Part shown: positions 35,942 to 46,481 of the stretch, piece by piece | Layout: the number at the start of each line of letters is the position of its first letter | Numbering within the stretch: the first letter of the stretch is position 1 | Source: Minisyncoccota bacterium | Lineage (GTDB): Bacteria; Patescibacteriota; Minisyncoccia; Phycocordibacterales; UBA1550 | Length of the DNA stretch: 64,000 nt | NCBI GenBank assembly: GCA_041660105.1 | Contig: JBAZWZ010000002.1 | Span: 57,964-121,963 of the forward strand | Direction: 5' to 3' | Position numbers and translations under genes: made by a program | Notes under the pieces: model-generated | Told to the model about the DNA's origin: nothing | The model's database searches: none | What the model saw: only the letters and a program-made list of their open reading frames with translations

Positions 35942-36910
35942 TTATGCCTTGAGGGTGATGTCGTGTGCTCCGAGAGCGCGCTTGATCTCCTGAATACCCT
36001 TGTCGCCCAAACCATCGATCTCCAAGAGGTCTTCCTCGGTCTTGCGAGCGAGTCCACCAATGGTACGGATGTTTGCGTTTGAGAGAGCGTTGTTGGTACG
36101 TGTCGAGAGGTCGAGGTTTTCTACGCGAGTCTTCAAGAAGTCGTTGTCTGCAGCGTCCTTCTTTGCAGGCTTCTCTTCGCCAGTAATCTCAGCTTCTTCT
36201 GCCTCAACTTCTGCCTTCTCTACAAAGCCAATAACTGCCTTGAGCTGGTTGATCATAATCTCAATCGATGCCTCGAGAGCGCGACGTGGAGAAATGGTAC
36301 CGTCAGTCTCAATAGTGAGGCGGAGACGGTTGTAGTCAGTACGATCACCAACGCGCATATTGTCTACTTCGTAGTTAACACGGCGAATAGGGGTGAAGAT
36401 CGCATCGAGCGCAATGGTGCCGATATCTACCTTCTCCTTCTGGTGAATCTCCTTTGATACGTAACCAAAGCCCTTTGCAACTACAATCTCAATGTTGAGC
36501 GTTGCGCTCTTGTCGGTCAATGTCGCGATGTGCAACTCTTTGTTCAAAACCTCAACTTGGCCAGACACGGTGATGTCACCTGCGGTAACATCCTTTACTC
36601 CCTTCACAGAGAGCGTCACGGTCTGTGACTCCATAGTTGATAGCTTGAAACGAGCCTTCTTCAAATTGAGAAGAATCGTGATGACATCTTCCTTCACACC
36701 GGGAATCGTTGAAAACTCGTGTGATGCACCTTCAATCTTCACCGTCGTGATGGCTGCGCCAAAAAGCGATGAAAGAATAATACGGCGAAGTGAGTTGCCG
36801 AGTGTGTGGCCGTACCCAGGGTAAAGACTTTCAATTTCGTAACTTCCCTTAAAACCGTCCTCTGAGAGAACTTTTGGCTTTGATGGCAATGTGATGTTGT
36901 AGTCGAGCAT
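35942..36910 (-). CDS. rpoA: DNA-directed RNA polymerase subunit alpha
   Basis: NTD plus CTD (LDLSTRTNNALSNANIRTIGGLARKTEEDLLEIDGLGDKGIQEIK), 322 aa. Confidence 0.9.
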   Translation of the reverse strand: MLDYNITLPSKPKVLSEDGFKGSYEIESLYPGYGHTLGNSLRRIILSSLFGAAITTVKIEGASHEFSTIPGVKEDVITILLNLKKARFKLSTMESQTVTLSVKGVKDVTAGDITVSGQVEVLNKELHIATLTDKSATLNIEIVVAKGFGYVSKEIHQKEKVDIGTIALDAIFTPIRRVNYEVDNMRVGDRTDYNRLRLTIETDGTISPRRALEASIEIMINQLKAVIGFVEKAEVEAEEAEITGEEKPAKKDAADNDFLKTRVENLDLSTRTNNALSNANIRTIGGLARKTEEDLLEIDGLGDKGIQEIKRALGAHDITLKA

Positions 36911-36976
36911 TGTGTTGTGGGTTAGATTAGGAGGAAACTTAGTTTAAAATTTGATAAATCAAACGGGATTCAGTGA

Positions 36977-37588
36977 TTAACGGCTGTAGAACTCAATAAC
37001 CGAAGTGAGATTGAATGACAACTCAGCTTGACCTGCCTTTGGCTTACCTTGGAAGGTTGCCGTGAGCTTGTCCGCGTCCACCTTGAACCAAGATGGTGCA
37101 GTGAGTGTCTTCATCTTCTCGCTCAATCCTTCAAAAAGTTTCGTGTTCATACTTCCTGGGCGAATAGCAATGACGTCGCCTACTTTCATACGGCGAGATG
37201 CGATGTTGCTACGGCGACCATTTACCATAATGTGTCCGTGGGATACAATCTGGCGTGAAAGCGCACGTGATGTTACAAAACCTGCACGAAATACTGCATT
37301 ATCCAAACGTGATTCGAGAGCTTCAAAAAGGAACTCTGCGGGATTGACTCCACGCTTTGCTGAAGCCTCTTTTACATAATTCGAAAACTGCGTTTCGCTC
37401 ACGCCGTACGTGTGACGAACCTTCTGCTTCTCACGAAGCTGACGGCCGTAGTCGGTTACGGTTGAACGGTGTTTCTTTTCAGAAATCAACTTTCCCGGTG
37501 GGTACGGACGCTTCTTAAAAGCGCACTTCTCACGTCCGCAAATGCTCTCTCCGAGACGACGACAAATTTTACATGTAACTCTGCTCAT
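36977..37588 (-). CDS. rpsD: 30S ribosomal protein S4
   Basis: N-terminal Zn-ribbon-like CKICRRLGESICGREKC and an S4 domain. Confidence 0.9.
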   Translation of the reverse strand: MSRVTCKICRRLGESICGREKCAFKKRPYPPGKLISEKKHRSTVTDYGRQLREKQKVRHTYGVSETQFSNYVKEASAKRGVNPAEFLFEALESRLDNAVFRAGFVTSRALSRQIVSHGHIMVNGRRSNIASRRMKVGDVIAIRPGSMNTKLFEGLSEKMKTLTAPSWFKVDADKLTATFQGKPKAGQAELSFNLTSVIEFYSR

Positions 37589-37611
37589 ATGTTAATAATT
37601 AATTGGATGGT

Positions 37612-38046
37612 TTAAATTCTTCGTGGCTTCTTTGGCTTTGGTCCGTTGTGAGGAACCGGTGTGACGTCGCGGATTGATGAGATGTCAATACCCTTTGAGT
37701 TGACCGCGCGGATAGAGCTCTCACGTCCTGCTCCAACGCCCTTTACGACAACGTCAACTGACTTCATACCGATCATTGCTGCCTTTTCTCCAACGAGCTC
37801 ACCTACCTTTGCGGCTGCAAATGGAGTCCCCTTCTTTGCGCCCTTGAAACCAAGAGAACCAGATGATGACCATACGAGTGCGTTGCCTGCCTTGTCCGCG
37901 AGGAGCACCTTGGTGTTGTTGTATGTTGACTGAACATAGAGAACGCCTTCAACGTGCTTCTTCTTTGCGGTACGAGCAAGAGCGCGAGATACCAATCCCT
38001 GATCAACACTCTGTCCTTCTTTTTTAATAATTCGTTTTTTGCCCAT
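37612..38046 (-). CDS. rpsK: 30S ribosomal protein S11
   Basis: Internal KKHVEGVLYVQSTYNNT... motif and C-terminal ...DVTPVPHNGPKPKKPRRI. Confidence 0.9.
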   Translation of the reverse strand: MGKKRIIKKEGQSVDQGLVSRALARTAKKKHVEGVLYVQSTYNNTKVLLADKAGNALVWSSSGSLGFKGAKKGTPFAAAKVGELVGEKAAMIGMKSVDVVVKGVGAGRESSIRAVNSKGIDISSIRDVTPVPHNGPKPKKPRRI

Positions 38047-38080
38047 AATAGTAGTCTTGTTGGTGATTGATTATTGCGCT

Positions 38081-38461
38081 TTACTTCTTGTCTGCCTTAC
38101 GTCTTCCTGAACCCATCGTTGTGCGCTTGTTGCCGCGTACGGTGCGAGAGTTGGTCTTTGTGCGCTGTCCACGAACGGGAAGCTTCTTTGCATGACGTGA
38201 ACCGCGGTATGATTTGATTTCTTTCAAACGCTTTACGTTGGTTGAAATCTCACGCTTGAGGTCTCCTTCGAGAGTGAGGCCTTCGACAACTTTACGAATC
38301 TTTGCCTCATCATCTGGGGTCAAATCCTTCGCGCGCTTGCCGTGATCAAGTCCTACAGCGTCGAGAAGCTCCTTCGCGCGGGGACGGCCGATGCCGTATA
38401 CCGCTGTGAGGCTGATCTCTAATCTCTTATCGTCTGGTATTGTAACTCCTAGGATTCGCAT
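38081..38461 (-). CDS. rpsM: 30S ribosomal protein S13
   Basis: MRILGVTIPDDKRLEISLTAVYGIG is the S13 signature. Confidence 0.9.
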   Translation of the reverse strand: MRILGVTIPDDKRLEISLTAVYGIGRPRAKELLDAVGLDHGKRAKDLTPDDEAKIRKVVEGLTLEGDLKREISTNVKRLKEIKSYRGSRHAKKLPVRGQRTKTNSRTVRGNKRTTMGSGRRKADKK

Positions 38462-38491
38462 AATTTAATATCTTAAAATGTTTTAGCTCTA

Positions 38492-38605
38492 TTAGCCCTG
38501 GCGCTGCTTGTGGCGAGGGTTCTCGCAGATAACACGAATACGGTCACCTCGTTTGACCGTCTTGCATTTCACGCAGATTTTTTTTACTGATGCTCGTACT
38601 TTCAT
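38492..38605 (-). CDS. rpmJ: 50S ribosomal protein L36 (37 aa; below the ORF-track length cutoff)
   Basis: Minus-strand translation gives [37 protein letters not shown], with the Cys/His zinc ribbon. It sits in the canonical position between infA and rpsM. Confidence 0.85.
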
Positions 38606-38719
38606 ATAATCATAAACTGGTTTACAGCGGATTGGTTTATACGGGTTTAACTGAACAAACCCCAAACTAGCTGATTCAAAAACAGTGAGAGTATTCTATC
38701 TCATTTCGAAATAAAATGC

Positions 38720-38925
38720 AAGGGCTTTGCCTCGCAAAGCCCACAACTGACAGCTAACACCGCTTACGCGGACATCTGACCGCTGATTTTCGCTTCGCGA
38801 AAATCAGCGGTAATGGTCAATTATCACACGTTTTTTGTCAAATGTTCCCCAAAATCCCCCGTGCCACTATCTAATAATCTATCCCCTGTCAGTTGTTATA
38901 TGTCAGTGGTCAGTTGTTCCCCTCT
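38720..38925. repeat. composite intergenic palindromic element (two hairpins plus inverted ACAACTGACAG ends, GTCAAATGTTCCCC module)
   Basis: Hairpins GGGCTTTGC-ctc-GCAAAGCCC and CCGCTGATTTTCGC-ttc-GCGAAAATCAGCGG. ACAACTGACAG at 38743 is inverted relative to CTGTCAGTTGTTATATGTCAGTGGTCAGTTGTT at 38886-38918. Related to the element at 26457-26548. Confidence 0.55.
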
Positions 38926-39139
38926 ATAAACGCTTGATGATACGACCTTTTCCGCCGTATGGGTCAAGCTTTACCATCACTTTGTCCCCGATGAGGACCT
39001 TGATGCGGTGGAGCCTCATCTTGCCCGCTAAGTAACAAATGATGTTTTTCTCCCCAGGAAACTCTACGCGGAACATAGCGCTCGGAAGCGCCTCTGTTAC
39101 TACTCCTTGTGTAAGTTCTTCTTTTTCGTTTTCTGCCAT
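38924..39139 (-). CDS. infA: translation initiation factor IF-1
   Basis: MAENEKEELTQGVVTEALPSAMFRVEF...GKMRLHRIKVLIGDKVMVKLDPY is the S1-like IF-1 signature. Confidence 0.9.
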   Translation of the reverse strand: MAENEKEELTQGVVTEALPSAMFRVEFPGEKNIICYLAGKMRLHRIKVLIGDKVMVKLDPYGGKGRIIKRL

Positions 39140-39292
39140 TTGTGAATGTTTATAATAACAAAATTATGGTGTGCCGTCAATTTCTCCGGCAAGTGCGTAG
39201 ATAACCAGTTGCAATAGACATAAATTACAACACATTATTTACGAAACAATCGTGACTGTCCCCATTTCCCACATTTCCCATTTCCTCATTTC

Positions 39293-39721
39293 CTACGACT
39301 TCTTCCGTAGTGTAATGTATTTTGAAATAATGAGAATAAGAGAAACAACAAGAAATATAATAGAGAGAAACATAGAAGTTGGCTCAGCAATTTGCATGCC
39401 CATAAAACCACCAATACTATCCTTTTCCATAAAAATAATTAAGGAAATAATGACAAATTGAAGCGGTACCCATCGATAAGCAAATTTACGCCAAGACTGA
39501 AAAATTTCATCACGCGAAAATAATAAGATAAATACAACAAAAGTTAAAGGAACAGAGAACCAGATGATAGATTTATATATTGCTATGTATGTATGCTGAG
39601 GTAATCCTAGTAACGGCCACACGTCATAATAGTGTTGAAGAAAATACGCAATCAATATCCCCGCAATTCCAATAATTGCCATGTTTTTCTTTGTCACCCA
39701 CTTATTAATATTTTCTGTCAT
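39293..39721 (-). CDS. small 4-TM membrane protein (paralog A)
   Basis: Shares (E/D)EIFQSW(R/L)..A..WVPLQ and overall topology with the adjacent gene. Confidence 0.55.
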   Translation of the reverse strand: MTENINKWVTKKNMAIIGIAGILIAYFLQHYYDVWPLLGLPQHTYIAIYKSIIWFSVPLTFVVFILLFSRDEIFQSWRKFAYRWVPLQFVIISLIIFMEKDSIGGFMGMQIAEPTSMFLSIIFLVVSLILIISKYITLRKKS

Positions 39722-39726
39722 CTTAT

Positions 39727-40131
39727 TTATTGCATTTTATTTCGTAAGGTAGAATACTTTACAAAAATGAATACGAGGGACACGAAGAAGAATACACAAG
39801 AAAAAAATATGGACATTGACTCGACTGTGGGTGCATTAAAAAATCCACCGCCTACTGTGCCACGCTCTCTAATTGCCATAGAAACAACCACAAGAATTTG
39901 CAAAGGAACCCACAAAATAGCCAAACGAAGCCAAGATTTAAAAATCTCACCACGAAGAGGAGAGAGGACAATCATAATTACAACTAGCGCAACGGAAACA
40001 TGGAATAATGGTTCTGCTATAATTTTGTACACACTCCTCGAAAGTAGCGCATGTCTATATAGTGACTCTATACCAAACGCCAGTCCAACACCAATCAAAC
40101 TTCCAATAAAAAGGTTTTTTTTGTCGCCCAA
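39727..40131 (-). CDS. small 4-TM membrane protein (paralog B)
   Basis: Tandem paralog of 39293..39721, directly downstream of the giant surface protein gene. Confidence 0.55.
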   Translation of the reverse strand: MGDKKNLFIGSLIGVGLAFGIESLYRHALLSRSVYKIIAEPLFHVSVALVVIMIVLSPLRGEIFKSWLRLAILWVPLQILVVVSMAIRERGTVGGGFFNAPTVESMSIFFSCVFFFVSLVFIFVKYSTLRNKMQ

Positions 40132-40200
40132 TTCAATACTTTTTCCATAATTTTAGATAATTAATTTTTAATAACACACTTAACAAACTTCCCGCTGGCA

Positions 40201-43200
40201 TTACTCCTCAAATCTCACCCCCACAACATCCATCTGGGTAATACCATTCACGGTTGTAGTGATGGTAATATTTTCCTGAGTCGTCGCTAAGCTTTGGGGG
40301 AAGAAAAGCGAGAACTTCGTCTGCTTGCGGTCATTGTCATTGTCATGTTCTTCCTCCTGGACAACATTGAGCATAGTGAAATTACCCACAATGTTCGACG
40401 CGAATGGCACATCTTTCTTGATCCCTGTTACCTTCACTGTCATCTCAAGTGGTTGTCCTTTTTTGAGTTTCAGTGTGTCGTCTGATTTGAGCAGAAGTGT
40501 CGTACTGTGGTTGGTATCCTTATATTTGTACTGTAGCTGAGCTGTTTGCTGTTTGTCATAGATATTTACAATGCTCATCTCTGACGTTGTCTTGTTGGCA
40601 CTTGTATTGGTTATCCCAAGAGTGATTGGGGAACCCGCAAAATCCAACTCTTTTTCTAAGTCACGTCTTCGTTCTTCGTCTCCTTCGTGGTCTCTCTTCT
40701 TTTTAATAGAGTCTCGTTCCTTAGTGTTTCCTTTTGTAGTAGCGAGAGTAAGTGTGTAAGTCTTGAGCTCTTTGGTGCTCTGTGCAAACGATACCGTGAT
40801 TACTCCGTCTGTTGTAGTGACCGTTGCGGGGACAGTAGTTCCTATACTGTCTTTCACAGGTGAAGTTCCTATGCGGTAATACGTGTTTGATAGTATGAGG
40901 TTTACATCCCCCTTCCCTGCAACTGAGAACGGCAAATCAAATGATTCTTTTTCCCAAAGAGAATACTCGCTTGGAATGATGAGATTTACAAAGACAGTAG
41001 CGTCAAATGGCTTCACGTCGTCTTGATTTGGGACACCGTCACCATCGGGATCTGCGGCTGGAGAAGAGTAAATTGTTATGGCGATGCTTGAGGTTGCAAT
41101 ATTGCCTGCCATATCGTGTGCAGTTATTAATATGTTCGTAACTCCTGGCGCGAATATCTGCGTGAGAGGTACGTCTGTGGTAAATGTTGGGCTTGCATCA
41201 ATACTATCATTGACTGTCACGGGGACAGTAAGGAGTGTGCCTCCCGCAGTAAGTTGTTCCGCCGAGGTATCCGAAGCGAATATAGTTGGTGCGACGGTGT
41301 CGATATTGAAGGTGAGCGTTTTTATAGCCTCACTATTGCCACTGTTGTCTACTGAGTAGTATTGAAGCGTGGTACTGCCTTCTGTTGCGATAACAAGTGG
41401 AGTGCTTGTGCTGTATGTATTCCATGTAGTTCCGTTATCGAGAGAGTACTTTGTGTCTGCAACTCCTGATGACACCTCACCAAGAGGGGCGCCATCATCT
41501 GCGGTAAGAGCAACAGTAACTGCAGAAGTATAGTAGTCATTTGAGCCAAGAGTACCTGATGGCATCACAATAGTTACTGGTGCGGTGAGGTCGTTGCTTT
41601 CTTGTACGGACACATCGGTCCCCACGGTGTCGATAAGATATGTTTTTTCCTCTGTTGGAGCAATGGTTTGATTTTCCAAAATTGGAGACGTGAAGATTCC
41701 CACCGTTGGGTCAATGGTACGTGCGTAGAGTGAATATGAGTCGGTGGTCGTCGCCATGGTGCTTGCGAGCCCTGGGTTCTGCTTCAAGAACTCATCATTG
41801 TCATGCGCAGAGACATAGTACTTCACTTGAGTCCCTTCGGGGACGTAAACCCATTCTGGGATACCTTGGTTATCTCCCGAGACAATAGAGCCAGGGATTT
41901 GATTCTCGTACTCCCCTGTTACATAGTTCATGCCAATGTGTTTGCCGTCGGGGGTAATGGCGTGGAGATCGAGGTCAGGAAGGGTGTAGTCGAGAGGAGA
42001 AGATAACATAAATCCATTATTTCTATAACATGGTTCGAGGTTCTCGCAAGTTCTAAACATAGCACAACCAGCGTCGTAAGAGGTGACAACTGTAGACAAT
42101 GCAGAGAGGTAGTAAAGATAATTACCCCAAGTAATGACAGAGGCAGACCACAGAACCCAAATAGAAACTTTAACTATCTTTACTTTTCGCCATTGAATAT
42201 TAATTACACTCTTTTTTTTGTAGACAAATACTAATATTATGCTTAATACCAAAAACAAGAGCGGGGCAGGCATTTTTTTAACGGCGCAAATTCTTGTATC
42301 TAACCCTCCACCAGAAAGAAGTTCGTCTATTGGAATTGAATTCCTTGGGATAGTCCCCGGCCTGACTGGAGTCATAAACATATCACCCTTAATATACTGT
42401 AGGAAATCGTTCAAAGGGCTTAGGACTGATCCATTATAATTTTGATTAAATGATTCTTTTGGAATCTTGGTGATTGAAGTAGCAATCTCGTATTTTCCGT
42501 TAACTGTTTGGTCTCCTGAGGTAGAGAATTCTACAAACTTATCCAGGTCTTTGTAAGTTTCCCCAGACACAGAGAGCACACCGTCATCTACACTTATAGT
42601 GCTTGTAGAGTTTGTAGGACTGGAAGGAATTGTGATGGTTTGTTTTTTCCCCAAGAGAAAACCGCTCGCCCCAACACGATATAGCACCAATGATTTTTCT
42701 TCTGGAAGCGATGAATCCCATATTTTCAAATTTCTATTACGTGCCTCGAGAATATAATAATCATCGGTTGATGAATTAGTATTTTCTTCAAGGTTGTAGC
42801 GGAAAATAGTGTCACCCAACTCGCTCGTTTCCAGTGAATTAATCTGATATGTTCCGTATGCGGATTTTGGATGAATATCTTCGCTGAGCAAACCGAGAAA
42901 TTCTTGGGTAAAGGAGGTCATAAATGGAGGATCTGAGACATTGTTGTCGGCGACATTCCAGTCACCGTCCGCCATCAAATCCCACCTTCCTACATTGCCC
43001 ATTAGATAGAGATCGGGAGTTGGGGTGTTCTCTGGAGTTATTGTGGTTCCAACAGTGTGCCCCACCTCGTGCATCCACACACCAACTGGCTCGCGCTCTG
43101 AGATAATAATCTTTAGAGGTGGTTGCCAAAACAATATCGTACGCCCCCATGCACCAGTGGAAAGTTTACTTTTAGGAATTGTTGCATTCATTTGATCCGA

Positions 43201-44898
43201 CTCACCCGCATGAACAACTGCCGCAACATCAAACGCTCTTAAATCTATCGCGGATATAGTAATTGCATCCTCAACAAACTCATCCTCCTTATCATTCGCC
43301 CCATAATACGCCTCAGTCTTATCCGTCTTGTACCACAGCCCACCGTTATCAAATATCGTAAACGTAAAACTCAACGAACCGTGCGATACTTCTTTGTAGT
43401 AATCATTGATGCAGTAGGCGAGGTCGGTGTAGTATTCTTCGCCATAACCATTGGCGTAAGTCTTTTCAGGAATGAGCTTGCATGGCTGAGCGGTTGTTGA
43501 CGCTGTTGTGTGGGAAACATCTACTGGCTCCGCGAGAATGATAGCGACGTTAATGTTTTTTGCTGTGCTTGTCGGTGCGAGCCAACCATCTTGTTTTGTC
43601 CATGGCAGATTATCTTGTCCACCAGGGAAAACGTAGGCGGAATCACAGATGTTGTCATTATTTGCATCCCTACAGCCTTCACTTGCTGTATCAAAGTTGC
43701 TCCAGTAGTTGCCACCTATTGGAGGAGCAAGGTTGAATATATCGGTATTTGTGTAGCGAGTATCAATATAAACCTGCGTTGGGTTATTGAGAAAGTTATT
43801 ATTGTATATTTTGTTAATAATAGGCAGACTCCACGGGAAGTTGGATATCCCGCTTACAGCGTTTTTTGAAAAAGTGTTACCAGACAAGGTATTGCCGCTG
43901 GAAACAAAAAAATCGATTCCATTCTTATAGTTATTTAATGCGTTATTCCCGGAAAGGGTGTTGTTATTGGAACCAAAAAGGAAGATTCCGAAAGAATTAT
44001 TTTGAGCAGTGTTGCCAGTCAGAGTGTTGTTATTGGCACCACGGAGAAGGATTCCGCGGCTAGAATTAAATACAGTATTCCTGGTTAGGGTGTTGTTGGG
44101 GCCTACAAGTTCGATTCCATTCGTATTATTCGATATCGTATTGTTGACCAGAGTGTTATAGCTAGAATTGTAGACAAATATTCCATCCGTAAAGTTACTA
44201 ATATTCAAATTCCTGATTGTCACACGCCCTCTCCCGTTAAGATAGACACCGTTCCCCGTGTTATATCCTGTCAGCGTATGGTGGTTACCATCGAGAGTTA
44301 CATTATTACTGTCTATCTGGATGGTTTCGGTGAGGTCTGTGTTCATCGTGCAAACCCTTGTAGTATAATTCCAGCTACCAATCTGAGTACAGTCTCCGCC
44401 CGTTGCGTTGTCGCTAATGAATTTCGTTGAGTGGCGAGGTTGAATAAATACTATATGTGTCTTCGATAAATCTTGTGAGTATGAGTAGCCACCACTTGCA
44501 TCAGTAACAAACTGGTCTAAATTGTGATAGCTGTCTTCATACTTATAGTACGTTGTCGATGTGGCAAAACCAGAGAGGGTGACTTGAGTTGATGTCGCCG
44601 TAGATGAGGCCGATGACTCAACTGTTAATGTTACCATTTCTGGTACGGAGTCCATTTTTAATTTAATCTGCTCTGAACTGTCGAGGGTGACATTGAGATA
44701 TTGACTGTCTGTGATAGTGAAGTGTGTATCATCCCCCTCAGTTGTGCCTGGCATAACAAATGGCTGGGGTATATCAAATACAGGAGGTGGAACTGATTGC
44801 GCGTATGCAAAAGAATTAAATCCAAACAATAAAGCAAGCGCAAACACCGCGCGCACAATAAGACGGATGATAATCTTTTGCATAAAATTGACGGTCAA
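40201..44898 (-). CDS. giant (1565 aa) secreted/surface protein with parallel beta-helix repeats and an HEXXH zinc-metallopeptidase-like (M6/InhA-like) region
   Basis: N-terminal signal peptide. Repeated NNTLTGN/NNTLSGN beta-helix units. VWMHEVGHTVG...VGRWDLMADGDW. A hydrophobic segment (LLFLVLSIILVFVY) mid-protein and Ser/Thr-rich linkers. Confidence 0.75.
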   Translation of the reverse strand: MTVNFMQKIIIRLIVRAVFALALLFGFNSFAYAQSVPPPVFDIPQPFVMPGTTEGDDTHFTITDSQYLNVTLDSSEQIKLKMDSVPEMVTLTVESSASSTATSTQVTLSGFATSTTYYKYEDSYHNLDQFVTDASGGYSYSQDLSKTHIVFIQPRHSTKFISDNATGGDCTQIGSWNYTTRVCTMNTDLTETIQIDSNNVTLDGNHHTLTGYNTGNGVYLNGRGRVTIRNLNISNFTDGIFVYNSSYNTLVNNTISNNTNGIELVGPNNTLTRNTVFNSSRGILLRGANNNTLTGNTAQNNSFGIFLFGSNNNTLSGNNALNNYKNGIDFFVSSGNTLSGNTFSKNAVSGISNFPWSLPIINKIYNNNFLNNPTQVYIDTRYTNTDIFNLAPPIGGNYWSNFDTASEGCRDANNDNICDSAYVFPGGQDNLPWTKQDGWLAPTSTAKNINVAIILAEPVDVSHTTASTTAQPCKLIPEKTYANGYGEEYYTDLAYCINDYYKEVSHGSLSFTFTIFDNGGLWYKTDKTEAYYGANDKEDEFVEDAITISAIDLRAFDVAAVVHAGESDQMNATIPKSKLSTGAWGRTILFWQPPLKIIISEREPVGVWMHEVGHTVGTTITPENTPTPDLYLMGNVGRWDLMADGDWNVADNNVSDPPFMTSFTQEFLGLLSEDIHPKSAYGTYQINSLETSELGDTIFRYNLEENTNSSTDDYYILEARNRNLKIWDSSLPEEKSLVLYRVGASGFLLGKKQTITIPSSPTNSTSTISVDDGVLSVSGETYKDLDKFVEFSTSGDQTVNGKYEIATSITKIPKESFNQNYNGSVLSPLNDFLQYIKGDMFMTPVRPGTIPRNSIPIDELLSGGGLDTRICAVKKMPAPLLFLVLSIILVFVYKKKSVINIQWRKVKIVKVSIWVLWSASVITWGNYLYYLSALSTVVTSYDAGCAMFRTCENLEPCYRNNGFMLSSPLDYTLPDLDLHAITPDGKHIGMNYVTGEYENQIPGSIVSGDNQGIPEWVYVPEGTQVKYYVSAHDNDEFLKQNPGLASTMATTTDSYSLYARTIDPTVGIFTSPILENQTIAPTEEKTYLIDTVGTDVSVQESNDLTAPVTIVMPSGTLGSNDYYTSAVTVALTADDGAPLGEVSSGVADTKYSLDNGTTWNTYSTSTPLVIATEGSTTLQYYSVDNSGNSEAIKTLTFNIDTVAPTIFASDTSAEQLTAGGTLLTVPVTVNDSIDASPTFTTDVPLTQIFAPGVTNILITAHDMAGNIATSSIAITIYSSPAADPDGDGVPNQDDVKPFDATVFVNLIIPSEYSLWEKESFDLPFSVAGKGDVNLILSNTYYRIGTSPVKDSIGTTVPATVTTTDGVITVSFAQSTKELKTYTLTLATTKGNTKERDSIKKKRDHEGDEERRRDLEKELDFAGSPITLGITNTSANKTTSEMSIVNIYDKQQTAQLQYKYKDTNHSTTLLLKSDDTLKLKKGQPLEMTVKVTGIKKDVPFASNIVGNFTMLNVVQEEEHDNDNDRKQTKFSLFFPQSLATTQENITITTTVNGITQMDVVGVRFEE

Positions 44899-44922
44899 CT
44901 TTTACTATTAATAATGCTAAAA

Positions 44923-45035
44923 GTATACCCCCACACCTACTTTTTACCTAGTAGGTTATACACAGTTAATATTATTGATACTATCTATGAAATTGTGTCG
45001 ATGATCAATGTGGAAAAGTAGGTGTGGGGGTATAC
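44923..45035. promoter_or_regulatory. 22-bp perfect inverted repeat GTATACCCCCACACCTACTTTT ... AAAAGTAGGTGTGGGGGTATAC enclosing about 68 bp (with an internal ACCTAGTAGGT palindrome)
   Basis: Located 25-135 nt upstream of the giant gene ATG. The arms contain TATACT. Confidence 0.5.
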
Positions 45036-45047
45036 CACGGAGGCGCG

Positions 45048-45119
45048 CAAAAACGTCAGAGGGCGGGATTGCCGAAGGCAGTCCCGCACTTTGACGTTTT
45101 CTGTCAGATGTCAGTTGTG
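45048..45119 (-). terminator. terminator hairpin (CGTCAAAGTGCGGGACTGCC-ttcg-GCAATCCCGCCCTCTGACG + TTTTT) fused to a partial ACAACTGACATCTGACAG repeat module
   Basis: Read on the minus strand directly after the stop of the 45132..46481 gene. Confidence 0.5.
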
Positions 45120-45131
45120 CGCACCGATACA

Positions 45132-46481
45132 CTACTTCGTCAAAATCTTCACCGTTATTTTTGTGGGGTCGGTGGGGAAAACTGTTTTCCAGACGGGGCG
45201 GATGGTGAGGTTGGCTTTGTGGATGTTGCTCTGGTCGGCAATCATAGCGCTAAAATCATTTTTGTTTTTGCCTACGAGTGATGCGATGATTTTCGCTGAA
45301 TCAATTTTGCCTACAAAAGATGCCGGTCCTGCGATGTGGAATTGTAATTTCGAAATATCTGAGAGCACTACGTTGTCGACGGGGTCAATAAATGTAAACG
45401 TAAGCGTCGACATATCGGGGATACCATATGGTGTCGCCGTCGTGTCATCGGTGAATGCGGTAGCGGTGAGAACTTTGATCAACGAATCCGTATCAAAGAA
45501 AAATACTGATGCGGTCGCACGTACCGTCACATTGGCAGCATTATCAGCCGAGTAATCCTGCGGAACTTCTTCAAACTTCACAATCACGCTTCCCGGGAAA
45601 AAAGTAACGTTCTCTGGAATTTGCGCGCGCGCCTTTTCTGTCGCCTCTTTCTTGAGGTCTTGCTTGAGCTCTTCCATAGCTTGCGCAATCGCTTCGTCAG
45701 AAGGAACTTTCACCGTACCTGCAAACCCGCCCGCGAGCACCGAGTCTGGCTTCGAGCGCGCATAAAACCTTGTGTATCTTGGGTCACCTTTGAATCCTGG
45801 AATTGTGAAATCAACGGGCTTATCAATATTGTACTTCTCGCCTGCTGCGTCTGCGTAGATTGTTGCCTCGATTGACCCTGGAACTGTCTTGCCACTTACT
45901 ACTTTATAGCCCGGGACAACTACTGATTTGTCTATATGAAATATTTTATGATCAGGTGTCTCGAGGCGTGTGTTTATGACGAGCTTCTGAGTAGCGGTGC
46001 TGTAATTGTTGTAAATGATAACCTTGCCCGTTGCTTTGTTTTGAATATTCTTTTCGACCGTTACGGGTGCTTCCTTGGTCTTCTCATCAGTGAGACTTAC
46101 AAATTGAAACACGAGAGAATCATCATGAGCAGCAAGTTCCTTTACTGCAGTGAAGTCAGCGTCGAGGGTTGCCTCCCTGGTCGTGGGAGAAATCTCGATA
46201 ATTGCCGTTGCAAAATAGTTTGCAACAACGAAACCACAAGCGAGAAGCGCCACAAACACGAGAGCCCAGAGGATACCACGTACCCCTGAGCCACTTGACT
46301 CCACTGGTTTCCTCACCTTAGCGCTACGAGACTTTTCAAAAAATGGATTGTTCTCAATGCGGTCACCTGCTCTCTCGGGGGAAATGCTGGGGCGCGACTC
46401 AGGTACAACAACAGGACGACGAACAACCTCGTTGTGAGGGACGAGCACGTCATTCATTTGTTTTTTCTTGATGTCATCCAT
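45132..46481 (-). CDS. hypothetical membrane-anchored protein (449 aa, single TM)
   Basis: Basic N-terminal region and one TM (ILWALVFVALLACGFVV). No recognisable domain. Confidence 0.5.
   Translation of the reverse strand: MDDIKKKQMNDVLVPHNEVVRRPVVVPESRPSISPERAGDRIENNPFFEKSRSAKVRKPVESSGSGVRGILWALVFVALLACGFVVANYFATAIIEISPTTREATLDADFTAVKELAAHDDSLVFQFVSLTDEKTKEAPVTVEKNIQNKATGKVIIYNNYSTATQKLVINTRLETPDHKIFHIDKSVVVPGYKVVSGKTVPGSIEATIYADAAGEKYNIDKPVDFTIPGFKGDPRYTRFYARSKPDSVLAGGFAGTVKVPSDEAIAQAMEELKQDLKKEATEKARAQIPENVTFFPGSVIVKFEEVPQDYSADNAANVTVRATASVFFFDTDSLIKVLTATAFTDDTTATPYGIPDMSTLTFTFIDPVDNVVLSDISKLQFHIAGPASFVGKIDSAKIIASLVGKNKNDFSAMIADQSNIHKANLTIRPVWKTVFPTDPTKITVKILTK

Follow-up and report, generated by a model that had tools for sequence, protein, structure and literature searches.

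A probable mosaic surface protease/adhesin, its four-helix partner genes and a dispersed palindromic element in a Paceibacterota genome

Bacteria of the Candidate Phyla Radiation (CPR, or Patescibacteria) spend their lives attached to other microbes and are not known to make lipids of their own. The locus presented here belongs to one of them and recalls several described systems: the secreted zinc metalloproteases of the InhA/peptidase M6 type, the NosD/CASH proteins with their parallel beta-helix repeats, the lipase effector loci of the type VI and type VII secretion systems (T6SS Tle-Tli, T7SS TslA-TilA), the polymorphic toxin loci (CdiA-CT/CdiI, Rhs), the silent-cassette systems of Neisseria, Borrelia and Mycoplasma genitalium, and dispersed inverted repeats such as the Correia elements. 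It lies in a window of 64,000 nucleotides, the whole stretch analysed (contig JBAZWZ010000002.1, positions 57,964 to 121,963), and comprises the gene of a giant surface protein followed by two genes for small proteins with four predicted transmembrane (TM) helices, hereafter 4-TM proteins TM-A and TM-B. Together these are a three-gene, same-strand unit in a Paceibacterota genome, and a perfect inverted repeat stands directly upstream of it. An earlier note on this DNA, made from its letters alone, had thought of a small-genome bacterium; this is borne out by the CPR assignment, the NCBI product label being Candidatus Paceibacterota.

The reading which we favour, and hold to be probable with some reserve, is that of a mosaic surface protease/adhesin accompanied by 4-TM genes of a lipase lineage and preceded by a promoter palindrome. 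The giant would be exported by means of its signal peptide and anchored in the membrane through a helical hairpin, with both halves facing outward. Its N-terminal half would present a beta-helix of the glycan-binding type together with a divergent M6/InhA-like zinc protease, and its C-terminal half would form a stalk of immunoglobulin (Ig) domains ending in an adhesin-like tip of ~305 aa. The catalytic centre would derive from an M6-type family of surface proteins in Paceibacteria, whereas the last ~600 aa, like TM-A and TM-B, would come from a lineage with a secreted LCAT-type lipase, and transcription of the giant, TM-A and TM-B genes would start ~7 nt past a TATACT hexamer (44922-44927). 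Such an architecture would fit a contact-dependent lifestyle. The parts are of known kinds, namely an M6-like protease, a NosD-type helix, Ig domains and a dispersed palindrome. Four things were not found described in the searchable literature: the swap of lipase and protease modules on one scaffold, the very large family of 4-TM partners, the arrays of cassette and 4-TM orphans with a non-toxin cassette, and the palindrome in promoter register.

Domains and probable mosaic origin of the giant protein

The 1565-aa open reading frame (ORF) claimed by the earlier note is present on the minus strand at 40201-44898, with a TTG start. In the public record of the protein (P0001; 1560 aa, 100% identity) the start corresponds to the ATG at 44883, from which the gene is given here (40201-44883, 1560 aa); residue numbers follow the 1565-aa version. 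P0001 is named 'NosD domain-containing protein [Candidatus Paceibacterota bacterium]' at NCBI and 'M6 family metalloprotease-like' at JGI. The N-terminus is signal-peptide-like (MQKIIIRLIVRAVFALALLFGFNSFAYA|QS; residues 6-34, 44797-44883, cut predicted at AYA|QS), as judged by inspection of the sequence and by a hydrophobic segment at residues 5-32. A NosD/CASH-type right-handed beta-helix follows (residues ~188-436, 43591-44337), with domain matches to NosD (PF05048, E = 9.6e-31, residues 204-403) and Beta_helix (PF13229, E = 1.3e-21) and, among solved structures, to NosD (PDB 7o0y, residues 188-436, E = 2e-7). The giant shares with NosD/CASH proteins only the fold: it scores 46.6 against a cutoff of 300 with the profile of the NosD protein of N2O-reductase maturation (TIGR04247) and has no nos operon context, by which a true NosD was ruled out.

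Past the helix lies a divergent M6/InhA-like zinc metalloprotease domain (residues 497-722, 42733-43410) with the motifs HEVGH (residues 610-614, 43057-43071), PDLY and WDLMADGDW. It has in common with the secreted zinc metalloproteases Bacillus InhA (PDB 4yu5) and Vibrio PrtV the HExxHxxG motif, a downstream PD(E/L)Y aspartate, a W.LM..G.W segment and C-terminal Ig-like domains. TIGR03296 (M6) covers residues 497-722 at E = 1.3e-14, and a profile built from 11 relatives matches InhA 4yu5 at E = 5.5e-6, aligning VGVWxHExGHxxG...PDLY...WDLMxxGxW...SSYTKEFL with VGVFAHAFGHDLGLPDEY...WSLMSGGSW...SPQNKDFL of InhA. The residues H, E and H, as well as D629, are invariant among the 11 aligned relatives, and HE..H occurs in 17 of the 17 M6-type relatives scanned. 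D629, the putative third zinc ligand, stands in PDLY, aligns with PDEY of InhA and sits 15 residues past the second His owing to an insertion of ~9 residues between HExxHxxG and PDLY, which sets the giant apart from InhA. The assignment is weakened by the scores: TIGR03296 gives 54.7 bits where the curated cutoff is 110.8, and the M6 family of Pfam (PF05547) matches residues 495-540 at a borderline 22.4 bits against a cutoff of 22.0. The signal peptide, the beta-helix and the zincin that the earlier note had read from the translation are therefore all recovered, the last in a divergent form.

Unlike in InhA, the protease is fused after a NosD-type beta-helix and is followed by a two-helix membrane hairpin, which suggests that it is probably tethered rather than released. 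The hairpin corresponds to the internal hydrophobic segment of the earlier note, which is real and which a hydropathy scan resolves into two adjacent helices (residues ~876-893 and ~911-934, 42097-42273) with a K-rich loop between them; it is kept ~270-300 aa past HExxH in nearly all M6-type relatives. Because the signal peptide is N-terminal and the number of helices even, both large halves are predicted to be outside the cell. The post-membrane part begins with a beta-sandwich region (41071-42012) made of a PPC-like domain (963-1100), an OmpL47-type domain (1123-1199; NF047446, 55 bits, above cutoff) and an HYR-like domain (1200-1276; weak Pfam match). It ends in a C-terminal cassette of ~305 aa (residues 1255-1565, 40204-41136), in which two Ig-like beta-sandwiches are joined by a charged helical hairpin. 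The AlphaFold2 (AF2) model of the cassette (pLDDT, the predicted local distance difference test, 63) is matched by Foldseek to Ig modules of the adhesins AspA, SdrC, ClfB and Als3. No Pfam toxin domain was found in it, and its structural matches are of the adhesin type only.

The layout of N-terminal domain, beta-helix, M6 domain, hairpin and post-membrane domain is common to ~20 database proteins, and the N-terminal beta-helix module alone occurs in hundreds more Patescibacteria surface proteins with other enzymes (NlpC/P60, C39-like, LCAT lipase). In P0003, whose contig ends at the gene, the N-terminal 440 residues are 68% and the last 460 residues 72% identical to the giant, whereas the centre is a lipase, without HExxH and without the TM hairpin. 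Moreover, a 1603-aa LCAT-type lipase protein of locus L002 matches giant residues 963-1565 at 65% identity. Since an M6-type centre is thus joined to a C-terminal half of the lipase type, the giant is probably a recombinant that kept its C-terminal half and its partner genes from a lipase-type gene; the direction of the swap would have been the replacement of a lipase centre by an M6 one. A point against our reading as a whole is that a lipase domain is missing from the giant and from everything else encoded in the 64-kb window. As a separate observation, the C-termini of P0004-P0059 and of loci L007-L017 fall into few recurrent types which look like further interchangeable modules (...G(F/I)xxVxxxTxxGxxxVxY; ...YIYNLSTxxLxxGTWQLKVxLDDG...SIK; a helical ...LANLYxxLxxLLxxL), the type of the window giant itself being ...TTVNGITQxDVVGVRFEE.

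The four-helix partner genes and the C-terminal cassettes

TM-A (39727-40131, minus strand, 134 aa from a TTG) and TM-B (39293-39721, minus strand, 142 aa), which starts 5 nt downstream of TM-A, are the two tandem paralogous membrane proteins that the earlier note had recognised: they share 37% identity (E = 5e-19), and each has four predicted helices, as does the AF2 model (pLDDT 87). No terminator-like hairpin was found between the giant, TM-A and TM-B genes. A hidden Markov model of the family matches TM-A at E = 3e-33 and TM-B at E = 1.5e-38, and at E <= 1e-3 it collects at least 1,512 representatives (50%-identity clusters), nearly all of them unfused proteins of 125-150 aa. Pfam gives no consistent match for the family and NCBIfam none for the two window proteins; the PADLOC defence models match neither the 4-TM proteins nor the giant, and a Foldseek search of TM-A against the PDB returned generic helical bundles only (best E = 0.4). 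Conservation is seen in F..SW(R/K)K behind helix 2, in a PWYxGD-type loop ahead of helix 4 and, for most members, in two Cys of the first outer loop; W67 is invariant, F64 and S118 nearly so. The window pair represents a subtype with WVPLQ and GGF in place of the usual loop features.

The start of TM-A deserves separate mention. An ATG upstream of it (40148) encodes MEKVLNWATKK, like the normal N-terminus of the family, in the 0 frame, and the body of TM-A lies in the -1 frame relative to that ATG, across ACAAAAAAAACC (40113-40124; A8 run 40115-40122). A 68%-identical TM-A ortholog in L002 (7990-8040) has the same out-of-frame arrangement across A_AAA_AAA, and P0126 is in frame. P0123 is 100% identical to TM-A. 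The arrangement could be programmed -1 frameshifting, transcriptional slippage, or an old shared frameshift with a TTG/GTG restart.

The genomic context of the family was sampled in L002/L003, L004 and 12 genome loci (Paceibacterota, Nomurabacteria, Yonathbacteria and other Patescibacteria metagenome-assembled genomes, MAGs); the genome loci were searched with type-I members only, which makes the sample small and biased to type I. Every 4-TM family member in the sampled loci stands on the same strand as, and directly 3' of, the gene of a 762-1888-aa protein, at a distance of a few to ~45 nt, mostly 10-45 nt. All 16 of the upstream partners tested carry LCAT (PF02450, E = 1e-9 to 1e-16) and DUF7379, and the majority possess a signal peptide but lack a membrane anchor. 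On the other hand, none of four other M6-type giants (P0005, P0012, P0015, P0016) has a 4-TM gene nearby, and the two are combined only in the window and in L001, where the giant is 61% identical to that of the window and the gene neighbourhood is different. These counts bear on the suggestion of the earlier note that the 4-TM proteins are conserved partners of giants such as this one. As partners of large surface proteins they are indeed conserved, but not as partners of M6 giants generally; their co-conservation follows the lipase-type lineage, or the C-terminal half derived from it. A dedication of the 4-TM proteins to M6-type giants could still appeal to L001, the closest relative, where a pair of 4-TM genes likewise follows the M6-type giant, yet both counts speak against it. 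Nothing relevant on DUF7379 or LCAT in Patescibacteria was found in the searchable literature.

Downstream of many large genes there are also orphan units, that is, 5'-truncated copies of the large gene's own C-terminus, each followed by a 4-TM gene which is often split (L001, L002, L007, L011, L013, L014, L017, L125). The order is giant, TM gene, 99-aa fragment, TM gene in L001, and large gene, TM gene, 193-aa fragment, TM gene, 311-aa fragment, split TM gene, fragment in L002; no C-terminal fragment lies between TM-A and TM-B in the window. With giant residues 1255-1565 as query, only short stand-alone proteins of 193-311 aa were returned. The stand-alone cassettes P0155 (80% identity; WC791_04650) and P0158 (60%; WC791_04645) adjoin the 4-TM paralog P0127 (WC791_04640), in the same MAG as window TM-B (P0121, WC791_01400). 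The 2.2-kb contig with P0155 reads, in order, cassette end, decayed TM gene, intact 302-aa cassette, truncated TM gene and cassette fragment. The cassettes have two tail classes, of which P0157 is a mosaic, and their variation is spread along the length, with no conserved pre-toxin demarcation motif seen.

For the 4-TM proteins we tentatively propose an immunity-like role of self-protection, possibly inherited from lipase-type ancestors and kept as orphan protection. This role is preferred because of the effector-then-small-gene order, the extreme diversification, the tandem runs, the decayed copies and the retention without a lipase. A secreted lipase gene followed by a small protective-type gene, diversified and often multiplied, is also what characterises T6SS Tle-Tli and T7SS TslA-TilA. 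Unlike in those systems, export here would be by a Sec signal peptide, and the window giant is without a lipase domain. A difference which counts against the proposal is that the immunity proteins Tli and TilA are periplasmic or lipoproteins, whereas the proteins here have four TM helices with short extracellular loops. Polymorphic toxin loci (CdiA-CT/CdiI, Rhs) share with the present loci the order of large exported protein, small gene, and copies of truncated C-termini with small genes, some of the orphan copies here being decayed and some mosaic. However, the duplicated C-terminus here is an Ig-like pair and not a toxin fold, and the enzyme domain (lipase or protease) is central and absent from the orphans; no genes of CDI (contact-dependent inhibition), Rhs or T6/T7 secretion systems turned up among those called in the neighbourhoods under study. 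A further point to be set against our reading is that cassette class and 4-TM type do not co-vary. Their pairing may therefore only reflect the unit of duplication, and a specific pairing of C-terminus and 4-TM protein was set aside.

The main rival, which we consider rather unlikely, would make the 4-TM proteins membrane docks or assembly partners that hold the large enzyme on the surface in a tetraspanin-like manner. The one-to-one pairing suits such docking, as in L010 (16-14190), where LCAT-type paralogs, 61-91% identical to one another, stand three in a row with a separate 4-TM gene for each. Docking would also suit the 13 of 16 lipase-type giants in which no membrane-spanning anchor is predicted apart from the signal segment at the N-terminus, the conserved Cys pairs and PWYxGD motif of the predicted extracellular loops, and the intact 4-TM genes in both M6-type chimeras (window and L001). 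The window giant, however, has a TM hairpin of its own, the sole feature common to the partners is a lipase domain which it lacks, and the lack of co-variation between C-terminal class and 4-TM type counts against docking too. Furthermore, tandem runs of 4-TM genes alone and the many decayed copies look more like immunity islands. As a side observation on L010, the first of its LCAT paralogs has an extra N-terminal subtilase S8 domain fused to it.

It is more improbable that the extra 4-TM genes and truncated C-termini are merely debris of unequal recombination and that the window 4-TM pair has no current role. In favour of this, splits or truncations affect many of the 4-TM copies lying downstream (L002, L011, L013, L014, L125), the stand-alone cassettes examined (L002_311; P0154-P0158 by alignment) begin without a hydrophobic, signal-peptide-like N-terminus, and TM-A has lost its in-frame ATG. 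Against this, the 4-TM gene that comes first behind a large gene is never broken, the window and L001 have each kept two whole copies although their giants are down to 61% identity, the reading frames of the 302-aa cassettes P0155 and P0158 run through without interruption, and the frame arrangement of TM-A is kept in the 68%-identical ortholog.

In our favoured reading, the duplicated and 5'-truncated units of cassette and 4-TM gene would give a pool of variant tips for recombination. A bolder extension of it, which we regard as doubtful, is that the locus is a cassette-exchange expression site, where promoter-less Ig-like tips of ~305 aa recombine into the 3' end of the giant, the 4-TM partners travel along, and the palindrome is an undescribed, selected promoter module for leaderless genes. 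Silent-cassette systems (Neisseria pilE/pilS, Borrelia vlsE, Mycoplasma genitalium MgPa) likewise have one full-length surface-protein gene with several promoter-less partial copies of an exposed portion, 50-80% identical, some at a distant locus of the same genome, and mosaic variants. They differ in that the cassettes here carry an extra membrane-protein gene and are few and long (~305 aa) instead of many and short. If the proposal is true, exchange would alter the exposed adhesin tip and with it host or antigen specificity, the donors being WC791_04645 and WC791_04650 in the same genome and the orphans in relatives.

The palindromic element upstream of the giant gene

The element (44923-45035) consists of two arms of 22 nt (44923-44944 and 45014-45035), 100% complementary, around an interior (44945-45013) in which a nested palindrome, ACCTAGTAGGT, occupies 44946-44956. 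It is the perfect 22-bp inverted repeat with nested palindrome of the earlier note, with 69 nt between the arms where ~68 had been stated. The arm sequence has no other copy in the 64-kb window (0/100 shuffles give a match), and the region folds at z = -5.0 against shuffles. An Rfam scan of 38500-46000 at E <= 1 gave no match, which sets the palindrome apart from the known RNA families. In its canonical orientation the window copy is on the plus strand, and its asymmetric motif-side arm faces the giant gene.

The same arm is widespread. The 19-mer TACCCCCACACCTACTTTT has at least 100 exact matches in metagenomes, and a partner arm in inverted orientation lies 4-300 nt away at ~70 of 80 loci examined; two or more copies are found on four contigs. 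The arms are conserved, while the interiors are unrelated in sequence and in length (4 to ~300 nt). The anatomy is asymmetric: AGTA|arm|TGCATAGT...variable...|arm|TACCA. Copies are intergenic in 56 of 61 cases, with 12 divergent and 2 convergent neighbour pairs, and of the 36 copies with an assigned orientation, 31 point their motif-side arm at the start of a gene. On the sense strand of that gene the sequence is CTATGCA-AAAAGTAGGTGTGGGGG-TATACT-N6-9-ATG; in ~20 copies other than that of the window the hexamer stands 6-9 nt ahead of an ATG. The downstream genes are unrelated and, identified by eye, housekeeping: FtsH (two genomes), SerS, SMC, DnaX, RpsB, PilB and a pilin. A search of viral contigs gave two matches to the 19-mer, both inside coding sequence and unrelated.

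From these ~20 copies and the leaderless pattern, the TATACT at the outer end of the gene-proximal arm (44922-44927, minus strand) is predicted to be a -10 hexamer, with transcription expected to start near 44915 and a leader of ~32 nt before the ATG at 44883. Leaderless mRNAs look common in the window genome, since a Shine-Dalgarno-like motif precedes 3 of 43 window genes (>=150 aa), whereas TAnnnT occurs within -16..-5 of the ATG at 18 of the 43; several upstream regions read TGnTAnnnT, e.g. TGGTACAAT and TGGTAATAT. The G-rich arm was also considered as a Shine-Dalgarno site and rejected, because its spacing to the ATG is too long and the genome rarely uses such sites. The inverted repeat is therefore read as probably one copy of a dispersed, non-inverting palindromic promoter module that would supply a TATACT -10 box. 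Several facts tell against this part of our reading: in the window copy the ATG is 38 nt, not 6-9 nt, past TATACT; its -35-like motif is CTAGGTA against CTATGCA in the family, and that motif is itself a poor match to TTGACA; and, since an exact 19-mer served to find the copies, their arms look more conserved than they are. Nothing relevant on the arm sequence in this context, or on leaderless translation in Patescibacteria, was found in the searchable literature.

The earlier note had taken the repeat for a regulatory switch working by phase-variable inversion. A regulatory function is plausible, as the element probably carries a promoter, but a switch specific to this operon is not: the family is dispersed. 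The model that joins an operon-specific invertible promoter switch to 4-TM proteins dedicated to M6-type giants, already at odds with the neighbourhood counts above, is very improbable as a whole. It could draw on the perfect 22-bp arms around a short AT-rich segment directly 5' of the giant and on the promoter-like character of arm plus flank. Yet the same arms stand before unrelated genes at all those other places, L001 has no repeat upstream of its giant, the closest ortholog, and some interiors, of 4-10 nt, are too short for inversion by site-specific recombination. Inversion itself is largely refuted for the family: in 15 of 15 same-locus pairs of family copies from independent assemblies the interior has the same orientation, with an identity of 1.00 direct and 0.12-0.40 inverted.

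A selfish mobile element akin to a miniature inverted-repeat transposable element (MITE), landed 5' of the giant without a selected regulatory role, is a possibility that we think unlikely, although several traits recall it. With Correia elements of Neisseria, other MITEs and Bacteroides invertons the family shares conserved inverted arms of ~20 nt (here 19-22 nt), TA-rich ends, an intergenic position, many copies, including several per contig in relatives, promoter-like sequence at one end, and gain or loss between relatives. In L058 and L061, which are syntenic with the window at 75-83% protein identity, the element is present where the window has an ordinary promoter, as at an SMC-like gene, read by TGGTAATAT-N9-ATG in the window and preceded by the element in the relatives; the lack of a copy in L001 points the same way. 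The flanks read ..TG|GTATAC..GTATAC|T, and the outer GTATAC could be a target duplication; being itself palindromic, it makes a target-site duplication indistinguishable from an extension of the repeat. However, the interiors are not conserved between copies, unlike in typical MITE families, and the element is asymmetric (TGCATAGT beside one arm, flanks TACT vs TACCA). Unlike Correia elements, MITEs and invertons, it also keeps a near-fixed register and orientation to the ATG of leaderless genes (31/36; -10-like hexamer 6-9 nt before the ATG), with no inversion seen. No transposase-bearing full-length copy was seen among the examined copies. Finally, the FtsH genes (by eye) of two genomes (L031, L042) have the element directly upstream with the same arms and interiors of 38 and 26 nt; shared arms with different interiors suggest long-term retention at one promoter. 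In a separate case, the arms of a pair in L091 (3117-3452) lie on either side of an entire small gene for a GIY-YIG nuclease (MFYVYVLKS...LYFGSTNDLRRRLSDHN...), which has a TATAAT-N6-ATG of its own; a longer form of the element may carry this gene as cargo, or the arms may be two solo ones.

Surroundings of the locus and meaning for attached life

The neighbours of the giant in the window are ribosomal and cell-division genes. Upstream, a terminator-like hairpin (45050-45100, minus strand; 24-nt arms, 88% complementary, 3-nt loop, then a T-run) follows a 449-aa gene. A similar hairpin stands upstream of the orthologous giant in L001 (5886-5927), with the core GGGA(T/C)TGCC-loop-GGCAATCCC in common; as this core recurs beside different upstream genes, the hairpin may be part of the giant's module and not of the gene before it. 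Downstream, a short tandem repeat (39259-39294; period ~8, 4.5 copies, GAAATGNG on the minus strand) begins at the TM-B stop codon, upstream of a promoter-like site of infA's own (TTGACG-17-TATTAT). Large beta-helix/M6 genes adjoin ribosomal-protein clusters in two genomes: after rplD in L121 (650-7795) and before infA-rpmJ-rpsM-rpsK-rpsD-rpoA in the window (35942-39139; names read from translations). No tRNA or tmRNA was found in the 64-kb window.

Exported hydrolases and adhesins are likely tools of the attached lifestyle, and almost none has been characterised. The locus suggests a modular make-up of such surface proteins with exchangeable parts, in that one scaffold bears either a lipase or an M6 protease. 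Moreover, it points to a genetic coupling of secreted lipases with a very large 4-TM family (at least 1,500 clusters, unannotated), whose members become candidates for self-protection or docking. It also suggests that exposed C-terminal tips are present as spare cassettes, a hallmark of surface variation, and a palindrome in promoter register before leaderless genes may offer a handle on transcription signals in organisms that are not yet routinely cultured.

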